From sequence record NC_110914.1: 44,992 nucleotides of DNA, one strand, 5' to 3'. The stretch is from a phage. Made by a program: the position numbers and the translations under genes. Each line of letters begins with the position of its first letter. Position 1 is the stretch's first letter. The notes below the pieces were generated by a model. That model did no database searches, was not told the origin of the DNA, and saw nothing but the letters and a program-made list of their open reading frames with translations. Positions 2,131-42,089 of the stretch are shown in pieces.

Positions 2131-3792
2131 TTACGCCGCAAGCAGTTCTTTCGCATTCGCCAGTGTGTTACGTGTGACTTCACTGCCACCAAGCAGGCGC
2201 GCCAGCTCTTGTAACCGCGCTTTTTTATCCAGGGATTGCATGTGTGTTTCTGTCATCGCACCATCGGTTTCTTTGCTGACAAAATAGTGTTGATGACCAC
2301 ATCCCGCGACTTGTGGCAGGTGGGTAACACACATCACCTGAGTTGATTCGCCAAGTTGACGCAGCAGTTTGCCGACAACTGCCGCTGTTGGACCGCTAAT
2401 CCCTACATCCACTTCATCAAAAATCAGTGCCGGGGTTTCCATTTTACGCGCCGTGATGACCTGAATTGCCAATGCGATGCGTGACAATTCACCACCGGAT
2501 GCGACTTTGGCAATAGGCTGCATTGGCTGACCTGGGTTGGTGGTTACCCGAAACTCAATACGATCGGCACCGTCAGCGCCCAGGTGATGCTCGTCAAATT
2601 TAACATCGATCGTAAACTGCCCATGCGGCATTGAGAGCGCATGCATACTGTCGGTGATCAGCTGTGCCAACTCATTTGCATAATGCTGGCGTTGCAGGTG
2701 TAATGCGTGCGCGGTTTCCAGTGCCTGCTGATGATGTTTCGTTACCGCCAGCGCGAGCGTTTCTTGTGAGTCGGCCTGATCGTCCAGTTGCTGCTGTTCT
2801 TCCAGTAGCGACTGGTAATACTGTGGCAATGCCTCAGGGCTGACGTGATGTTTACGTGCCAGCGAAATCTGTTTTGAGATGCGCTGTTCAAGTTCAAACA
2901 GTCGGTTGGGATCGAGATCCAGACGATCGCAGTAGTGGCGCAGTTCATCGCTGGCTTCAGCAATCTGGATGGTAGCTTCTTCCAGCATATCAAGTACGCC
3001 GGACAGTTTGCTGTCCATGCCAATCAATTCGCTCACCAGTTGTTTAGCCGTGTAAAGCTGACTTTGCAGGTTTGCGTCTTCACCGTCGGCCATTACTGCC
3101 AATGCATTCTGGCTGGTAGTCAGCAATTGACCGCTGTTCGCCAGACGTTTGTACTCTTCGTCGATTTGCTCAAACTCTCCGGGCTGCGGATTAAATTCGT
3201 TAAGTTCTTTTAATTGGTATTGCAGCAGTTCCGCACGGGCGGCGCGTTCCTGACTTAACTGTTGATGATGTGCGAGGTCACGGCAGCTTTGATGCCACAA
3301 CTGATAACGTGCGGTCATTTCCTGGAGCAGAGAGGTTTCATTGGCATAGCCATCAAGCAGGAATTTTTGGTGCTCGGGTTTGGTGAGTAACTGATGGGCG
3401 TGCTGACCATGGATCTGAATCAACAACTGGCCCAGTTCGCGAAGTTGTGACAGAGGAACAGCTGTACCGTTGATAAAACCTCGTGAGCGACCATCGCTAC
3501 TGATTACGCGACGAAGCAAACATTCATGACCGTCTTCAAGCTGGTTTTCTTCCAGCCAGCGCAGGGCCGCTGGCGTATCTTTCAGAGAAAAACGGGCGCA
3601 CAGGTCGGCACGAGCAGCGCCGGTACGCACCATGTCGGCTTCAGCGCGACCACCGAGACAAAGGCCGAGGGCATCTATTGCAATAGATTTACCCGCGCCG
3701 GTCTCGCCAGTTATTACGGTCATGCCGCTATGAAAATCAATCTCAAGCTCACGAACGATAGCAAAGTTGCTGATGGTCAGTTGTGCCAACAT
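2131..3792 (-). CDS. recN: DNA repair protein RecN
   Basis: 553-aa ORF; N-terminal Walker A (GETGAGKS), SMC-like coiled coil; recognised as RecN. Confidence 0.95.
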
Positions 3793-3820: not shown

Positions 3821-3858
3821 CTGTTATTGTGTACAGTATAAACTGGTTTTATATACAG
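3821..3858. promoter_or_regulatory. LexA (SOS) boxes in the recN promoter region
   Basis: ctgttattgtgtacag (CTGT-N8-ACAG) and adjacent ctggttttatatacag upstream of the recN start; recN is a classical SOS gene with multiple LexA boxes. Confidence 0.7.
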
Positions 3859-3877
3859 TAAAGAGGCTGGCGTAAAA

Positions 3878-4756
3878 TTAGAATAATTTTTTTGACCAGC
3901 CGAGCTTGGTGCTTAATGTATTGAAATAACTGTAATCTTTCGGATGAATCAGATTCAGATGGTAATCACAGCGACGAATCAGGACATCTTCACCTTCCTG
4001 AATCGGCAGTGCTATCTGGCTGTCGCAACTGATTTCCAGGTCGTTACGGCGATGCGAAAAACGCAGACGGATCGTGCTGCTGCTGTTTATCACCAGCGGT
4101 CGCGCTGACAACGTATGCGGGAACATGGGCACCAGGGTAATCGCATCCAGAGAGGGTGTCAGAATAGGACCGCCCGCAGAGAGGGAATAGGCGGTGGAGC
4201 CTGTTGGCGTCGAAATAATCAGGCCATCAGAACGCTGAGAAAACGCAAAGATCTCGTCGATATACACTTCGAACTCAATCATATGCGCCACTTTGCCAGG
4301 ATGAAGTACCACTTCGTTAATCGCCGTGCTGATGCGTTTCTGGCAATCTTGCTGACAAACTTGCGCTTCCAGCAAAAAACGTTTCTCGCTGATGTAGTGG
4401 CCTTCCAGCACATCGGCTAATTGTTGCTGGGCGTTATCGGGATCAAGGTCGGTCAGGAAACCCAGGTTGCCACGGTTGATTCCAATAACTTTAATATCGT
4501 AACGGGCGAGTGTGCGTGCCGCGCCCAGCATATTACCGTCGCCACCAACGACTACCGCGAGATCAGCCAGTTGCCCAATCTCCGCGAGCGTGCCAGTTTT
4601 CACATTCTTCAGTTGCAGTTCGTGAGCGATTTGCTGCTCAACGATGACCTCGTAACCTTTTGTGTACAGCCAGCGGTAGAGCATTTCATGTGTTGTCAGT
4701 GCAGTGGGGTGCCGTGGGTGTCCCACAATGCCAATACACTTGAAATGATTATTCAT
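3878..4756 (-). CDS. nadK: NAD kinase
   Basis: 292-aa ORF with GGDGN motif; recognised as NadK. Confidence 0.95.
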
Positions 4757-33161: not shown

Positions 33162-34166
33162 ATGGGCGCGGAGATTAATATTTTGGAAACTGATTTTAAA
33201 ATAACCCTCGAAGGTTTCGCTACTGAGCAAGAAGCAAATAATATCGGTAATTTCACACTAGAAGCTATCCGAGCTTTAACAAAAAATCTCAATCTTGATA
33301 TCTCCAAATTAAAATGCGTGATTGTTTCCTATAACTTCAGTGAAGCTCTTCAAAAGGTAACATCCTCTTACCAACACAAATCCCCTAGTTCATTTACCAA
33401 TAGCAAACAGGGCGCAGCCGTCGGGCAGTTAGTAACAAAAATTGGCAATGATGGGCTATGTGAAGAATATACCCTTGTGCTATCGATTGATTTTTTTGTT
33501 GAGCTTTTCAATGATGGTAGCTTCTTAAAACTGAAAGAAGAAGGATACCTCGCAGTCATCCATCGCATTCACCATGAATTAGTGCACGTACATGAAAAAA
33601 ACTTACTAACATGCTTAGCCCAAAACTTTACAGTCAACGAGTATGGTAGCGCGCTTCTTATCTCAGCCACGCGTGCATGGTCTGAATATCTCGCTAATTA
33701 CATGTCTTCGGGGTCTGCCCCTCAAGAAACTATCGATTTATTTTTAGAGAATCTTGACACTGTTGTAAATGAAGTATCTGACGAGATTGAAAAACTCATC
33801 TGGGGTTATAAGTACGGTAATATTTCTCTGAATGACATGTATCTCGAAGTAAAAAAACGTATCAGGCTAATCATCAACTCTTATGCTTATGCGATGGGTT
33901 ATGTCCATTCTCTAAACATCAATATTAAAGAATACGATCCAAAGCTATCCCTTACACTATCCAACTCAAAGATAAGATATCAATTATCAGAATTAGGCAT
34001 TGCTTTTCAGAATCTTTATGGGAAGTTTAATGACCAGCACATTACAGGTTTTGGTGATTTTCGGGAGATAACAATAATCATTGATGAAATATTCAAGCAG
34101 TTTGGGCTTGTTTTAGAGTGTCCCGATTGGTCTGGCGACGGTGAACTCTACATACATGTAAATTAG
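33162..34166 (+). CDS. Hypothetical HExxH-motif protein (cargo gene between portal and cos)
   Basis: 334-aa AT-rich ORF with HRIHHELVHVHE (HExxH) and a Glu about 20 residues downstream (NEYG), suggestive of a zinc metallopeptidase fold. No recognised homologue from memory. Confidence 0.55.
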   Translation: MGAEINILETDFKITLEGFATEQEANNIGNFTLEAIRALTKNLNLDISKLKCVIVSYNFSEALQKVTSSYQHKSPSSFTNSKQGAAVGQLVTKIGNDGLCEEYTLVLSIDFFVELFNDGSFLKLKEEGYLAVIHRIHHELVHVHEKNLLTCLAQNFTVNEYGSALLISATRAWSEYLANYMSSGSAPQETIDLFLENLDTVVNEVSDEIEKLIWGYKYGNISLNDMYLEVKKRIRLIINSYAYAMGYVHSLNINIKEYDPKLSLTLSNSKIRYQLSELGIAFQNLYGKFNDQHITGFGDFREITIIIDEIFKQFGLVLECPDWSGDGELYIHVN

Positions 34167-34386
34167 TTTAATCATAGTAGAAACATAATTAGCAGTTTGA
34201 ATCCTGCCACTCCTGTAAAGCCGCTGCTCCTGGTGGCTTTTCCATGCACACCACCATCACGCATCAGATGCGTCTCACGCGCACGAACACACCCGACCAC
34301 CAACGAACCAGCAGCGACCACGACAGCGCCATCACGACGCGCTCAGAGGATAATTTTTATTATTACGCATCACTGCTGGCGCGCAA

Positions 34387-34405
34387 TGCTTTCCCCGCCA
34401 CGCCT
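34387..34405. other. Candidate cos site (19-nt cohesive end)
   Basis: Reverse complement GGCGTGGCGGGGAAAGCAT is 17/19 identical to the remembered P2 cohesive end GGCGAGGCGGGGAAAGCAC, in a GC-rich non-coding gap pointing toward Q as in P2. Confidence 0.6.
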
Positions 34406-34641
34406 GCCCGCTTTATGGGGCGGTTTTAATGCAGTTGCATGACCACTCTGGATCCCCGCCAGCTCTTGCGGCGCACGTACAAAACGGGTAACCCCGGCGC
34501 ATGCAGAACCATGCACCTGTTGCATGCACAGCTTATTTATTGATAAATCACCTTAAATTTACAAAAATTACGGACATTGATTCTTTCCAAACATGATAGC
34601 CTCTCGATAATTATCGAGCCTATTTTTGAACGGAGAAAGAT

Positions 34642-35583
34642 ATGCAAGGTGAAGTTGACGAACAGCAACCCAATGAGATTATGTCGGAGTTTGGATACTA
34701 TCCAGTAGAAGTTAACATTGAGACTGAACAATTTTCTTTGCTTACTTTACCTGGTCTCAATGAGAAAGTGGAGCGTGTTAATAATGATAAAAACGTTGTG
34801 AAAGGTTGGATATACCCTGGAAACCAAGATGTATATAACCTTAATGGTGGCATATCCACAATGCCTTATAGTCACCGAGTATTCAGTATGCCCAAAACGC
34901 ACACACTAAAATTAAAAAATACATCCTCGTTAGAAACTCTCAACTTTATTGTGTGGTGCCTTTCTTTTTTCAAGGGAATAAGATTGACAACCACTGACGC
35001 TGGTTTTTTAGATGCAACCACTATCAAGCCCACTAAGTTAACCGACTTTATTCTCGTTGGATGCTCTGAAAAAGAAGTCATAGAACTGGCTCTTAATTAT
35101 ATAAATGGCAAACATAAGGATGCGCACTCCCCCAAAAGAATTGCGGCAGTGGTGCATGCACTATTCTTATCTCAAAACCCACAATACCTTTCTTTTGAAA
35201 AATTCCAGTACCTTTACATGGCACTTGATGGGTGCTTTGCTTTGTCGTGGGCTGAGCATGACAAGGCTCCTGATAAAAAACCGCCAAATCATTACAAGCG
35301 ATTAAAGTGGATGTGCAAAATTTATGGGTTATCAATCCCCACATGGGTGTCAGGTAAAAAAAACATTTCTGGCATCCGCAATGATAATTTTCATGAGGCT
35401 ATTTTTTTTGGTCAACCGCTTGGTTTCTCAAGTGTTAACAACAGTCAATATGGTAACGATATATTGCTGCAAATGCAGGCACTGGTATGTCGCCTATTAG
35501 CGGCAATACTGTCGGTTAATGATTGCAGTTATCTCAAATCTTCGGTCAACTCACGAGATTACCATTCATTAAAAATAAATTAA
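34642..35583 (+). CDS. Hypothetical protein with R-x4-H motif (cargo gene at the P2 old/tin position)
   Basis: 313-aa AT-rich ORF with its own AT-rich upstream region and a GGAG-type RBS; contains ...GIRNDNFHEAIFF... (R-x4-H, possibly HEPN-like). No recognised homologue from memory. Confidence 0.55.
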   Translation: MQGEVDEQQPNEIMSEFGYYPVEVNIETEQFSLLTLPGLNEKVERVNNDKNVVKGWIYPGNQDVYNLNGGISTMPYSHRVFSMPKTHTLKLKNTSSLETLNFIVWCLSFFKGIRLTTTDAGFLDATTIKPTKLTDFILVGCSEKEVIELALNYINGKHKDAHSPKRIAAVVHALFLSQNPQYLSFEKFQYLYMALDGCFALSWAEHDKAPDKKPPNHYKRLKWMCKIYGLSIPTWVSGKKNISGIRNDNFHEAIFFGQPLGFSSVNNSQYGNDILLQMQALVCRLLAAILSVNDCSYLKSSVNSRDYHSLKIN

Positions 35584-35657
35584 TGCTAACGCCTCGCGGT
35601 GCTCGTTGTTCAACCCCCGCCAGTACTGAAAGCGAGTTTCAGAACCGGCGGCGTTTG

Positions 35658-35867
35658 CTATCGTCGACGTGGTGGTGGTGCGTATTGTTTCGACCTGCTG
35701 ATGCTATCCAGCTTGCCGTAATTATCCCTGACTATTTCGGCACACCCGACCAGCTCTGCGGGTGTCAAATTCTCATTGACCATTATCTGCTGCAAACGAT
35801 GAACGATGGCCATCAGTTTGATGCTTTTAGTTTTGTGTTGCGGTATTTCACCTGGTAGTCGATGCAT
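35658..35867 (-). CDS. Small hypothetical protein (weak call)
   Basis: 69-aa ORF between two ~50-bp direct repeats; protein-like composition but no supporting motif. Confidence 0.25.
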   Translation of the reverse strand: MHRLPGEIPQHKTKSIKLMAIVHRLQQIMVNENLTPAELVGCAEIVRDNYGKLDSISRSKQYAPPPRRR

Positions 35868-36066
35868 ATTATCACCCTCAATGAATTTTAATCAGTGCCG
35901 TCAAAACGCCACTATAAAACCATCTCAGGTCATGCCTCATTAATCATGGGCGTGTCATCAATAGCACATTGAGAAATTTTGAAAGGCAGGACTTAAGCCT
36001 CGTGGGCTCGTTACTCAACCCCGCCGACGCAAAAAGCTAGTTTTTGCGCCAGCACGGTTATTATGT

Positions 36067-36297
36067 TTAACGCCAGCTATCGTCTTCCCAAATCTCTTGT
36101 AATATGCTGCCTAATGTTTCTCTGTCCGCCTCTTTATCGAATCCGATAGCCTCTACACCAGTCATTGACCCTTTCTTAACGTTAACTTTTGTTGCAGGAA
36201 AAACGCATTGTACTCGATGTGTTATTTCATTTTGAAAAGCATCAATGATCTGTTGCCCTAATTTTTGCTCTTTATCCAACGTGATATTGATTCTCAT
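36067..36297 (-). CDS. DinI-like protein (C-terminal-domain equivalent of 186 Tum)
   Basis: 76-aa ORF MRINITLDKEQ...RVQCVFPATKVNVKKGS...ETLGSILQEIWEDDSWR resembling remembered DinI; LexA box upstream of the two-ORF unit. Confidence 0.75.
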   Translation of the reverse strand: MRINITLDKEQKLGQQIIDAFQNEITHRVQCVFPATKVNVKKGSMTGVEAIGFDKEADRETLGSILQEIWEDDSWR

Positions 36298-36300
36298 AAT

Positions 36301-36483
36301 CTAATCAGCCTTATAAAAATTATCATCTTCGGTTTCGTTATTTTCGCTGTTTGCTAGGTCTGCAATGAGAGTGAGCGCGAGCTTTAAGTCTGATGGCTTG
36401 CAGTTTGCAATCAGAGATACCTCGGCAATAAATTGCACACAAGCCCACTTTTGCTGCGTTCGGCTGAAATGTTCGCCAACCAT
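36301..36483 (-). CDS. Small protein upstream of and in frame with the DinI-like ORF (possible N-terminal part of a Tum-like antirepressor)
   Basis: 60-aa ORF separated from the DinI-like ORF only by an in-frame TAG; GGGAGG RBS before its ATG. Confidence 0.5.
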   Translation of the reverse strand: MVGEHFSRTQQKWACVQFIAEVSLIANCKPSDLKLALTLIADLANSENNETEDDNFYKAD

Positions 36484-36504
36484 GAAGTCCCTCCCATAGG
36501 GTTA

Positions 36505-36520
36505 CTGTATATTTATACAG
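36505..36520. promoter_or_regulatory. LexA box overlapping the promoter of the Tum-like module
   Basis: Perfect CTGTATATTTATACAG (CTGT-N8-ACAG) about 20 nt upstream of the 36483 start, overlapping a TTGCCA ... TATAAAT promoter-like element on the minus strand. Confidence 0.75.
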
Positions 36521-36596
36521 TAGCACGTATTGGCAAAAGATGGGAAGAAAAAAAACGAATAGAGCGATTGCTGTATGTGCATGATATGGATATGAA

Positions 36597-38819
36597 TTAC
36601 TCATGTATTGGTTTTGATGCTTCAGCCATCGCCGCAACACGATTAAGGATTTTCCGAGCTTTAGCTTCATGCGATGGTGCTGCGGAAAATATTTCTCCTT
36701 TGGCCGTTCCGCGTAGCCATTTACCATCAAAACAACTTTTACCACCGGCCATCAGGTGCAGGGCTTCGCCCCGGCTGATATTAATGCCGGTTGTCAGATG
36801 TATCTCATCGATAGTTTTAGCTATAGCTGCGTTTTGCTCATCCGTTCCGTGGATGAATTTTCGCCGTGCTGCTGGCTTTTGCTTCCTGAGTCGGTTGGTC
36901 AATTCTCGTCTTTCACGCCGACTCAGTGGTTTTGTTAAATCCAGTATCGGTGGATCGCTTTCGCTTCCCGTACAGTTATTGACAGAACTCCGAGGGACGG
37001 CTTTGCCGTCCTGAAGGTCAACGGCCAAATCAACAGCACGCTTCGGAACAATCTTCCACTGAGTGAGCCGGGTTAAAATCGGGCTTCCTGCACCTATGGA
37101 GGAATCGTAGACCCCCTTAATACATACCGTTTCCTCACCGTACTGATTAAGCTCGGTACGCGGTTCATACAGTGTGCGCACCTGTAAATCATCGCGACGG
37201 ACAAACGGCCCACCCTGAGCATTAACATAACCAGCCCAGTCACCAGCGTCGGCGGCATCATGGACGGCGGCAAACTCAACGCTCAGACCGTGCGCGGTTT
37301 CGGTATCAGCGAGGCGACGCAACTCACGGTAAACCGTCACCGGCGCACCACCAATAAACTGAAACTGACGGATGTGCCAGCGCGCAGCCCATGCTGAAAC
37401 GGCGGGGGCTGTCTCTTTCAGCAGCTCACCGCTTTCATCATCGGTTTCACCATCGAGAGCATAACCGTCGATATTTTTTGAAATGTATTTAGCAACATAG
37501 CCGGTTGCGCTGCCTTTCTCCGGGTCAATGGACTCCGCGTGGAAACGTGCTTTTTTGGATTTATCGCTTTTCAGTTCGTGGCGGTCTTCTTTCCATGCGT
37601 ATTTACGGACGATGGAGCGAACATATTCAACATCTTCCGGCAGCATGAACATCAGCATGTGCCAGTGTGGAGTGCCGTCGTGATGGGGCTCGGCGACACG
37701 AATACCGAAAATACGGACATCTTCCCGATGTAGTTTGGCACGGATACGCGCCCAGATACCGGTTAGATAGTTTTGCGTGTCAGCCGGGCTGGCACCGCTC
37801 CATTTGCTGTTACGGTAACCGGCTTTAGTCGTGGCGTGATATTTTGACGGCGCGGTTAGAGTGTAAAACTCACCGACATAACCGAGCTCATTACAGATGT
37901 TTTCAAACCCACGAATGCGGGTCATGAGCTCACAGCGGCGAATCGCAGGGTTAGCAACTGAGCCATCATATTTTTCAATTAGGCTGATACGGTTGCCGTC
38001 TTCGTCTTCGAGATCCAGACCTTTGAGAAATTCACGAGTGCGGCGCTTTTGTTCACGCCAGTCAGTCACGCAGTTTTTACTCGCGTAAGTGTTTTTTTTC
38101 TTACTGACGTTGCCGACTGCAATTTGCAGGTGTTCGCGCCACGTAGCTGCTACACGGCGCAAACGACCGCGCCACCACCCATCGTTAAACATTTTGGCGA
38201 TAGCCGGTGCGATTTCATCCGCACCGACATATTTTTTTTCAACCCGCTCCCAATGTGGTGGGATAACGTTGAATTGGAGGGAAATAAAGCCAGCACGAAT
38301 ATACCAGGTGTACAGCGTTTTAAGCTCGCCGAATCCGTGGTCATTAATGTTGGCAAGTTCACCACGAATGAAATTAGCAATATCAGCGGCCAACAGGTCA
38401 ACATCAGCGCGCGACATGTCCGGGAGACGGTTATATCGGGCGACCATATTAACCATGCGTGACGACAGATATTGCATTTGCTGAGTATCAAAATGACTTC
38501 CAAAAACAGCGGTTGATACCTTGCTGTTGATACCAGCGCATTCGTATTTTTTTGCGACCAGTTCAAGACGCGGCAATGCCTTTTTGCAGAAGCTGATTAA
38601 AAATGCATTGGCTCGTTGACTACCCTGATTTTGCTCCAGCACCGCAGCAGTGCGATAAACATCTAACCGCACGCAGTCGGGCTGGAGAGAAAGCACCTTT
38701 TTTGCATGCAGCAAAGCCGCGAACATACGGTCGCGGCGATGCTGTTGCTCATAAGTAAGGTATGGGCTGGAGATTGCCGACCGTGGGACGTTCCACGGAT
38801 AAGCGAATTGAACAGCCAA
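36597..38819 (-). CDS. A: Replication initiation protein gpA (rolling-circle nickase)
   Basis: 740-aa ORF (P2 gpA about 761 aa) at the expected position downstream of the early genes. Confidence 0.85.
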   Translation of the reverse strand: MAVQFAYPWNVPRSAISSPYLTYEQQHRRDRMFAALLHAKKVLSLQPDCVRLDVYRTAAVLEQNQGSQRANAFLISFCKKALPRLELVAKKYECAGINSKVSTAVFGSHFDTQQMQYLSSRMVNMVARYNRLPDMSRADVDLLAADIANFIRGELANINDHGFGELKTLYTWYIRAGFISLQFNVIPPHWERVEKKYVGADEIAPAIAKMFNDGWWRGRLRRVAATWREHLQIAVGNVSKKKNTYASKNCVTDWREQKRRTREFLKGLDLEDEDGNRISLIEKYDGSVANPAIRRCELMTRIRGFENICNELGYVGEFYTLTAPSKYHATTKAGYRNSKWSGASPADTQNYLTGIWARIRAKLHREDVRIFGIRVAEPHHDGTPHWHMLMFMLPEDVEYVRSIVRKYAWKEDRHELKSDKSKKARFHAESIDPEKGSATGYVAKYISKNIDGYALDGETDDESGELLKETAPAVSAWAARWHIRQFQFIGGAPVTVYRELRRLADTETAHGLSVEFAAVHDAADAGDWAGYVNAQGGPFVRRDDLQVRTLYEPRTELNQYGEETVCIKGVYDSSIGAGSPILTRLTQWKIVPKRAVDLAVDLQDGKAVPRSSVNNCTGSESDPPILDLTKPLSRRERRELTNRLRKQKPAARRKFIHGTDEQNAAIAKTIDEIHLTTGINISRGEALHLMAGGKSCFDGKWLRGTAKGEIFSAAPSHEAKARKILNRVAAMAEASKPIHE

Positions 38820-40881: not shown

Positions 40882-41742
40882 ATGAGTTCTGAGCTTGATG
40901 TTCAGTGGCGTGTTAGTGCAACGAACGGCGTATTGGAACGCTTAATGTCAGCCTATGGGGTCAAGATGCAAAAGGATTTGGCTGACCTGCTAGGTATCGC
41001 TAAACACAGCGTTAGCGGCTGGGTTCAGCGTGATGCAATACCTGGCAATGTCATAGTTAGGTGTTGTCTTGACACGGGAGCTGATATCAATTGGCTTGTA
41101 AATGGAGAGCTTGCAAATGCAAATCACGAGCGAGCCAGTTGCAAGTTAAAAGGCAAAGAGCTTTATGACGAGATTATGACGAATGGTGGTAAAACCGTTT
41201 TGCGTAGGATTCTTGATGCGTATGGCTTTACCATGCAAAAGGAGCTCGGTGATTTGCTCGGCATTTCCTCTGGCACAATTAGCACATGGGTAAGGCGAGA
41301 TTTTTTCCCTGGTGATGTTGTTGTTACATGCGCTCTTGATACCGATACGTCACTGGAATGGTTAGCAACAGGCAAGGGGCAAATGCGAGCTAACAGGGAA
41401 GATGTCACATCTGGTTTTTCTATTAAAAAATCTCGTCTTGAATCTGGTGAGCTTAAGGATGCAGGAACGTGGCATCCTGACCCCTCAATGATTCCTTCTA
41501 ACTCAGGGGAATTGATTTTTGTTGACGGTGTAGCTGCCTCTTGGCTTGTCGACTGTTCTGCTTCGAATATAAGTAATGGTCGCTGGTTAATTGATATCGA
41601 CGGCGCTCTTGATGTTTTTGATGTAATTCGTTTACCTGGTGGAAAAGTCAGGTTGTCAAATAAGTCTGCTGAGTTTGAATGCAACATTACCGACATTACG
41701 CCTGCCGGGGTTGTAGTTTTCACATTGGAAAAACACGTATAA
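40882..41742 (+). CDS. cI: CI-type immunity repressor with tandemly duplicated N-terminal HTH domain
   Basis: 286-aa ORF divergent from the early operon; two related N-terminal segments (...LERLMSAYGVKMQKDLADLLGIAKHSVSGWVQRDAIPGNVIVRCCLDTGADINWLVNGE and ...LRRILDAYGFTMQKELGDLLGISSGTISTWVRRDFFPGDVVVTCALDTDTSLEWLATGK). No LexA-like Ser/Lys cleavage motif seen. Confidence 0.7.
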   Translation: MSSELDVQWRVSATNGVLERLMSAYGVKMQKDLADLLGIAKHSVSGWVQRDAIPGNVIVRCCLDTGADINWLVNGELANANHERASCKLKGKELYDEIMTNGGKTVLRRILDAYGFTMQKELGDLLGISSGTISTWVRRDFFPGDVVVTCALDTDTSLEWLATGKGQMRANREDVTSGFSIKKSRLESGELKDAGTWHPDPSMIPSNSGELIFVDGVAASWLVDCSASNISNGRWLIDIDGALDVFDVIRLPGGKVRLSNKSAEFECNITDITPAGVVVFTLEKHV

Positions 41743-41750
41743 GGGAAATT

Positions 41751-42089
41751 ATGAAACGTAAACTCTTTTTAGCTATGCTTCTTACCTTTTCTTTTGGCTC
41801 CTTAGCCGCTGAAAAAACACAGGATTTAGATGGCGCTAAGTTTGGTGAGGATTGGCCGTTAACTTTTGAAAAAGCTACGGTGTCTTGCGTTAACGGTAAG
41901 TATGCCTTTGTATACGACAAAGCAACTGATGACCGATACCCATTAAATGGTTTTGCTATTGATGGAGTAAAGTCTGGAAAGCTTGAGGGGAGCAATATTG
42001 ATGCTGTTTGGAAAGACAGTCCAGAGTATGCAGGTGTAAAAATTCCTTTGGATCCTGTAATGGATGCCGCAACAGCACTTTGCGAATAA
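41751..42089 (+). CDS. Small secreted protein of unknown function (moron between cI and int)
   Basis: 112-aa product with signal peptide (MKRKLFLAMLLTFSFGSLAAEKTQ); start trimmed from ORF 41679..42089; co-directional with cI and int. Confidence 0.6.
   Translation: MKRKLFLAMLLTFSFGSLAAEKTQDLDGAKFGEDWPLTFEKATVSCVNGKYAFVYDKATDDRYPLNGFAIDGVKSGKLEGSNIDAVWKDSPEYAGVKIPLDPVMDAATALCE

Follow-up and report, generated by a model that had tools for sequence, protein, structure and literature searches.

Induction of phage 186 depends on the LexA-regulated promoter p95 and on the anti-CI factor Tum (PMC7708051). The work on 186 Tum is that of Lamont 1989, Brumby 1996 and Shearwin 1998 (as cited in PMC3121763 and PMC7708051), and Tum has been likened to a fusion of an antirepressor with DinI (Lemire et al. 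2011, PMC3121763). It is encoded by one frame of 146 aa. A first-pass annotation of the DNA analysed here took 186 Tum to be one protein; this holds for the 146-aa frame but is incomplete, as the 186 record has nested products including Tum95.5. The latter starts at an internal GTG with its own AAGGAGG, consists of the DinI-like C-terminal module alone, and is annotated 'modulates SOS induction'.

In other phages tum is not a single frame. It is split by a stop codon in Fels-2 and PSP3 (Lemire et al. 2011, PMC3121763), and in PSP3 the upstream gene is given as the antirepressor and the downstream gene as a DinI homologue (PMC3121763, from a second-hand personal communication). The PSP3 record (AY135486) has 'similar to 5' end 186 tum; UV induction of prophage' for tumA and 'similar to dinI and 3' end of 186 tum' for tumB. 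The tumA/tumB arrangement is already known, both from this annotation, which is more than 20 years old, and from Lemire et al. (2011). The discovery value of one more split tum locus is small, since the arrangement is annotated and published. It is also said to be discussed by Bunny et al. in 2002.

A comparable but more distant system is the Gifsy dinI-gfoA/gftA module, a small operon with a LexA box, a DinI homologue and a small antirepressor that inactivates a non-cleavable repressor by binding (PMC3121763). In Gifsy, however, dinI comes first, neither antirepressors nor repressors are related by sequence to those described below, and the phages are lambdoid, not P2-like (PMC3121763).

The DNA analysed here, termed the window, is 44,992 nucleotides long. 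It matches E. coli chromosomes at 100%, e.g. that of the urinary isolate strain 222, and includes a PSP3-type prophage (genus Eganvirus, 186-like) that is inserted between rplS and yfiB. The region is carried by 81 of 5426 complete E. coli genomes, and in 27 the window's allele is matched along 80% or more of its length. The PGAP annotation of strain 222 designates tumA as 'hypothetical protein' and tumB as 'DinI-like family protein'.

The minus strand of the window displays a 186-like SOS module at positions 36522..36067, directly downstream of a P2 A-type replicase gene in a P2/186-like genome. It consists of a LexA box, a 60-codon open reading frame, TAG, a single ATT codon, and a 76-codon open reading frame (Table 1). 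The region is very probably the SOS-induction operon of the PSP3-type prophage, made up of the antirepressor gene tumA and the DinI-like gene tumB. The first-pass annotation had described a box, a 60-aa frame, one in-frame TAG and a DinI-like frame at 36067–36520, and all of these are present. Both frames and the core of the box are within that interval; the last two bases of the 20-mer and the −35 hexamer (36546..36541) lie outside it.

Table 1. Coordinates of the predicted SOS-induction operon and of other features of the window.
Feature	Position	Strand	Remarks
Gene A, P2 A-type replication endonuclease	38819..36597	-	Upstream of tumA
−35 hexamer TTCCCA	36541..36546	-	p95 equivalent by alignment with 186 and the U32222 p95 annotation
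LexA (SOS) box TACTGTATAAATATACAGTA	36503..36522	.	20-mer; sequence match, conservation and homologous annotated 186 site
−10 hexamer TACTGT	36522..36517	-	Within LexA box; aligned to the 186 p95 −10
tumA Shine-Dalgarno GGGAGGG	36489..36495	-	Read from sequence; strong; kept in relatives
tumA, predicted antirepressor, 60 aa	36301..36483	-	ATG at 36483, TAG at 36303..36301
Junction TAG-ATT-ATG	36295..36303	-	tumA stop, one codon (ATT 36300..36298), tumB start
tumB, DinI-like, 76 aa	36067..36297	-	ATG at 36297, TAA at 36069..36067
Hairpin directly after tumB	36016..36060	-	dG −29 kcal/mol, z −4.97; possible terminator or 3′-end structure
Cargo ORF, 69 aa	35867..35658	-	phrog_11386
Cargo ORF, 313 aa	34642-35583	+	phrog_5937
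Cargo ORF, 334 aa	33162-34166	+	phrog_11743
First lytic-operon gene, 123 aa	40389-40760	-	Apl/Cox position
cI, 186-type immunity repressor, 286 aa	40882..41742	+	Pfam PF07022 twice and PF16452
DUF2511 gene	41679-42089	+	Between cI and int
Host recN	3792..2131	-	Both classical SOS boxes upstream, at 3821-3860

The 113-nt intergenic region between gene A and tumA contains the 20-mer TACTGTATAAATATACAGTA, which agrees with the LexA consensus TACTG(TA)5CAGTA in 19 of 20 positions and has its core, CTGT-N8-ACAG, at 36505–36520. This core pattern occurs at three sites in the window, where 0.47 are expected. One of the other two is the second classical SOS box of the host recN gene (minus strand, 3880..3821), and the pattern is validated by this internal positive control. 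Both classical recN boxes (TACTGTATATAAAACCAGTT and TACTGTACACAATAACAGTA) are found upstream of recN. The third site (42004–42019) is inside the DUF2511 gene and is probably a chance occurrence.

An alignment of the window with PSP3, Midge, 186 and four diverged enterobacterial prophages shows the LexA box to be the sole invariant block of the intergenic region. The box lines up with two features annotated in the 186 record, namely the 'LexA' site and the −10 hexamer of the SOS-dependent promoter p95, and it overlaps the promoter of tumA. The −35 hexamer is TTCCCA in the window vs TTCACA in 186. A sigma-70 consensus scan did not call the tum promoter, whose hexamers are weak; its assignment comes from homology to p95 as annotated in 186.

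Relatives of the module were surveyed in 28 loci from species-representative genomes and in the best 80 of 256 viral-contig loci (n = 108), all gathered at the DNA level and independent of gene calling. All 28 genome loci and 78 of the 80 viral loci (106/108) have a LexA core ahead of tumA, and the distance from box to tumA is about 37 nt across the surveyed loci. One of the two viral contigs that have no box starts at tumA, so its upstream sequence is absent. Replicase gene A lies upstream of tumA in the genome loci surveyed. The proposal of a LexA-controlled, Tum-like module is upheld.

TumA differs from PSP3 TumA in one of 60 residues (98.3% identity), which ties it to a characterised protein; the homology to the N-domain of 186 Tum is only moderate. 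A comparison of the TumA profile with the profile of the 186 Tum N-domain (hhalign) gave a probability of 84% and an E-value of 7.9e-6 over 32 columns with 34% identity. The two share one Cys and an AL-x-LIA-x-x-A motif. TumA matches phrog_1993, and its family comprises at least 208 clusters of proteins of about 60 aa. Six sequenced phages have a TumA-type gene: PSP3, SEN1, SI22 and SW9 (Salmonella), Escherichia Midge, and Klebsiella RCIP0057. In BLAST comparisons with sequenced phages, the segment comprising the promoter, tumA and the tumB start has 94.6–97.7% identity to these six. Among the surveyed relatives TumA amino acid identity goes down to about 60%. An AlphaFold2 model of TumA displays a two-helix hairpin with an acidic disordered tail (pLDDT 66, moderate confidence).

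No match to TumA was obtained in Pfam, NCBIfam or PADLOC, and when the TumA profile was searched against the sequences of solved structures, all matches were at chance level. These results, the 'hypothetical' label in the databases and the weak similarity to the 186 Tum N-domain would also fit a different reading, in which TumA is not the antirepressor of CI here but has some other SOS-linked role, such as taking over the host, excluding superinfecting phages or communicating with other prophages, and induction takes another route. Antirepressors that act in trans against other prophages are known (PMC3121763). This reading is nevertheless improbable. TumA shares its position and the LexA-box architecture with 186 tum, the PSP3 annotation 'UV induction of prophage' and the statement in PMC3121763 agree on induction, and two further points that speak against it come from the CI repressor.

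CI is 98.3% identical to PSP3 CI and also aligns with 186 CI. A Pfam search found in CI two PF07022 helix-turn-helix domains and the 186-type C-terminal domain PF16452, and did not find a Peptidase_S24 domain. This cognate 186-type repressor is accordingly predicted to be without an autocleavage domain, as had been noted at first reading from the absence of a cleavage motif. Induction through the antirepressor module, also proposed then, is the expected route for a CI of this kind.

The helix-turn-helix (HTH) of CI is duplicated internally: residues ~14–83 and ~102–170 are 50% identical (BLASTP E-value = 4e-25). The duplication is common to the CI proteins of PSP3, SEN1, Midge, SI22, SW9 and RCIP0057; PSP3 CI has been described only as having 'a longer C-terminal domain' (PMC3448106). 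Among sequenced phages, a TumA-type gene and a double-HTH CI are found in exactly the same six, whereas the fused Tum of the 186 type pairs with a single-HTH CI, as in 186 itself. Strict co-occurrence of this kind is the second point against a role of TumA apart from CI. Phages whose TumA sequences are at least 98% identical have CI proteins that are only 72–76% identical overall. The CI variation is concentrated in the first HTH, with almost none in the second HTH and the C-terminal domain. This suggests that TumA may contact the conserved part of CI, i.e. the second HTH or the C-terminal domain.

The following course of events is proposed. In the lysogen, tumA-tumB would be kept off by host LexA, bound downstream of replicase gene A to the box overlapping the −10. 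After DNA damage RecA would become active, LexA would cleave itself, and a short tumA-tumB transcript would be made. TumA (60 aa, a predicted helical hairpin) would then bind the non-cleavable CI and stop it from binding its operators, whereupon the early lytic promoter would fire and the prophage would be induced. TumB, a separate protein probably made by termination-reinitiation, would be expected on RecA filaments, where it may adjust how strong the SOS signal is or how long it lasts. LexA control and antirepression are taken by analogy from 186 Tum, and the antirepressor activity from the upstream gene of PSP3. TumA of this E. coli prophage presumably inactivates its own CI.

The locus closely resembles that of PSP3: the gene pair follows gene A, and both the LexA box and the GAT-TAG-ATT-ATG junction are identical. 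It differs in its host (E. coli here, Salmonella for PSP3) and in tumB, which past its first ~10 codons is another allele with 47% amino acid identity. With 186 it shares a promoter that is repressed by LexA and lies downstream of gene A, an N-terminal module that can be aligned to TumA, a DinI-like module and a non-cleavable CI as target. It differs from 186 in that the latter has a linker of ~20 residues where the present locus has a stop, a single HTH in CI instead of two, and orf97 after tum, which is not found after tumB here.

The first-pass annotation had regarded the split as unusual and had offered three explanations for the TAG between the two frames: a two-protein arrangement, a nonsense mutation, or stop-codon read-through. 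It was asked there whether the TAG is conserved in relatives. The position of the stop is conserved, and its identity is not. The TumA frame ends at about codon 60–66 throughout the 108 loci, apart from one genome locus (L031) that is truncated at codon 37, and the position is also kept in the six sequenced phages. The stop codon itself is TAG in 81 of the 108 loci (genome 17/28, viral 64/80), TAA in 19 (7/28 and 12/80) and TGA in eight (4/28 and 4/80).

The nonsense-mutation explanation supposes that a recent mutation killed a fused tum, leaving a decaying prophage that is no longer SOS-inducible. It could draw on the single 146-aa Tum encoded by 186 and on the many prophages that are defective. 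Its probability is nonetheless negligible, given a stop position that is kept in 108 loci and in six viable phages, across many enterobacterial genera. Pairwise dN/dS values, taken from pairs without dS saturation, are 0.06–0.26 for tumA and 0.09–0.23 for tumB; they are well below 1, so both genes are maintained by purifying selection. The prophage gene set looks complete. Stand-alone proteins of 63–78 aa corresponding to the 186-type N-domain also exist, in Salmonella, Klebsiella, Kluyvera, Enterobacter and Edwardsiella. In addition, the surveyed DNA (28 genome loci and the best 80 of 256 viral loci) includes no locus in which a sense codon joins TumA to DinI. A fused TumA-DinI protein was likewise not found among the protein-database matches listed, which seem to be biased to short proteins; a parallel protein search with the 186 N-domain did not list the known 146-aa fused proteins. 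Because the protein matches miss known fusions, the statement that no fused form is present is based on the DNA-level loci. The conserved stop position, the low dN/dS values and the viable phages with the same stop led to rejection of the nonsense-mutation explanation.

Amber read-through, programmed or leaky, would give a 138-aa TumA-TumB fusion as the functional antirepressor or an important isoform. The two frames are in the same phase with only the TAG and one codon between them, and the base after the stop is A. A stop followed by A is not the strongest termination context. The in-frame TAG-ATT-ATG junction is kept in PSP3, Midge, four genome loci and 43–47 viral loci (of the best 80 of 256), and a fused form does exist in 186. 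The in-frame junctions are, however, nearly identical in sequence, and common descent explains them. Where the junction has diverged, tumB is out of frame, as in Phytobacter (L024, TAG-AT-ATG) and Pantoea (L028, a 13-nt gap). In 27 of the 108 loci tumA ends in TAA or TGA, and a DinI-like gene follows tumA in only 55 (genome 7/28, viral 48/80), i.e. it is missing in 53 of the 108 (28 genome loci and the best 80 of 256 viral loci). Thus neither stop identity, nor frame, nor an obligatory downstream open reading frame, the marks of programmed read-through, is conserved. TumB moreover has an ATG of its own, at the position of the independent Tum95.5 start of 186, and in the literature only the upstream gene is credited with antirepression (PMC3121763). 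The read-through fusion as functional antirepressor or important isoform is very unlikely, and read-through as the main explanation was dismissed on account of the variable stop codon, the variable frame and the frequent absence of tumB. A weaker version, in which a few ribosomes in suppressor-free hosts read TAG-A and give a minor 138-aa fusion that mimics full-length 186 Tum, has slightly less probability still. If true, such a minor fusion would couple CI inactivation to RecA filaments and add an extra regulatory layer that two separate proteins do not provide. The in-frame TAG-ATT-ATG junction, strictly conserved in close relatives, is compatible with it.

As judged from these comparisons, the TAG is the natural stop of tumA and is neither a mutation nor a read-through signal. 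The two-protein arrangement is the explanation that stands. Two genes are the norm in relatives, and the first is the antirepressor according to the PSP3 annotation and PMC3121763; with the arrangement already in the literature, the suggestion that the split is an anomaly falls, and the locus has the normal, published tumA/tumB organisation. The survey indicates that a separate antirepressor gene is the common state, and it is probably the ancestral one. The single-polypeptide Tum of 186 is best seen as a fusion that kept an internal start.

The GTG of 186 Tum95.5 (V-K-V-N-I-T-L-D-K) coincides exactly with the ATG of tumB (M-R-I-N-I-T-L-D-K), so that 186, too, makes the DinI-like part as a separate protein. 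The Shine-Dalgarno sequence of tumB is weak, and from this we infer that tumB is probably translated by termination-reinitiation (coupling) at TAG-ATT-ATG.

The second open reading frame had been called DinI-like from its letters alone, and domain searches agree. TumB scores 63.9 bits against PF06183 (cut-off 24.2; E-value = 1.7e-17; profile positions 2–62 of 63), matches E. coli DinI (1GHH) over its full length (E-value = 4.5e-8), and matches phrog_189, 'RecA filament binding protein DinI' (E-value = 6e-30). The alignment with E. coli DinI, for which a RecA complex is available (7YWA), extends from end to end and includes the acidic C-terminal helix ...EIWEDDSW. TumB is expected to bind RecA filaments, as predicted from its family and from this conserved helix. 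Its score against the NCBIfam DinI equivalog NF007893 is 51.4 bits, below the cut-off of 111, and TumB is therefore classed as a phage DinI-like paralogue, not an orthologue of host DinI. Deletion of the Gifsy dinI homologues had no measurable effect on induction (PMC3121763), and on this account the role of TumB may be subtle.

The tumB sequence is a mosaic. Up to about position 36268, i.e. through the first ~10 codons of tumB, the window is PSP3-like (97–100% identity). Beyond this point it is 186-like, with 57–77% identity to 186 and 37–67% to PSP3, and the encoded DinI module has 70% identity to the C-terminus of 186 Tum. The recombination breakpoint falls within 36258–36297. Among the viral loci (best 80 of 256), 32 have a PSP3-type DinI module behind the TAGATTATG junction and 11 have one of the 186 type. 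Recombination evidently makes use of the conserved 5′ end of the DinI gene as a joint.

In loci that have no DinI-like gene, tumA is followed by a hairpin, by other cargo (e.g. DNA methyltransferases) or by late genes. The DinI gene is, as the survey indicates, cargo that is optional and exchangeable. An Atlantibacter MAG (L016, positions 2687–2910) displays a DinI-like gene after tumA with a TAA-GCG-ATG junction. It was detected as two overlapping tblastn pieces, and its first open reading frame is only 54 codons long; it appears to be a decaying tumB copy, which fits with tumB being dispensable.

TumA is still given as hypothetical or of unknown function in RefSeq, PHROGs, Pfam and NCBIfam, and the assignment made here has annotation value. 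A LexA box together with a TumA of about 60 aa provides a reliable marker of an SOS-inducible 186/PSP3-type prophage, and this marker occurs across many enterobacterial genera.

The hairpin that follows tumB is very stable, and in relatives it is conserved, with compensatory changes. A U-tract is lacking on the minus (coding) strand, and the plus-strand side is T-rich. Within the ~20 nt after the hairpin is a conserved motif, GGTTGA(A/G)(C/T)AACGAGC, which is also present after tumA in DinI-less loci. The hairpin possibly ends or stabilises the transcript. Alternatively, the hairpin and motif could be a joint at which the cargo hotspot recombines, or a convergent terminator.

The segment between tumB and the portal gene (33162–35867) has a low GC content of 37–42% and occupies the position of 186 orf97. 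Its three open reading frames (Table 1) have neither a Pfam nor a PADLOC match; they may be morons or genes for anti-phage functions, located in a variable hotspot of the P2 type.

Two further genes flank cI. The lytic operon begins, at the Apl/Cox position, with a gene for a 123-aa protein that has no Pfam match, and its PSP3 counterpart has been described as a singleton unrelated to other Cox/Apl proteins (PMC3448106). On the lysogenic strand, the DUF2511 gene encodes a protein with an N-terminal signal-like sequence and is conserved in Midge and SI22; it is likely to be a lysogenic-conversion (moron) gene.
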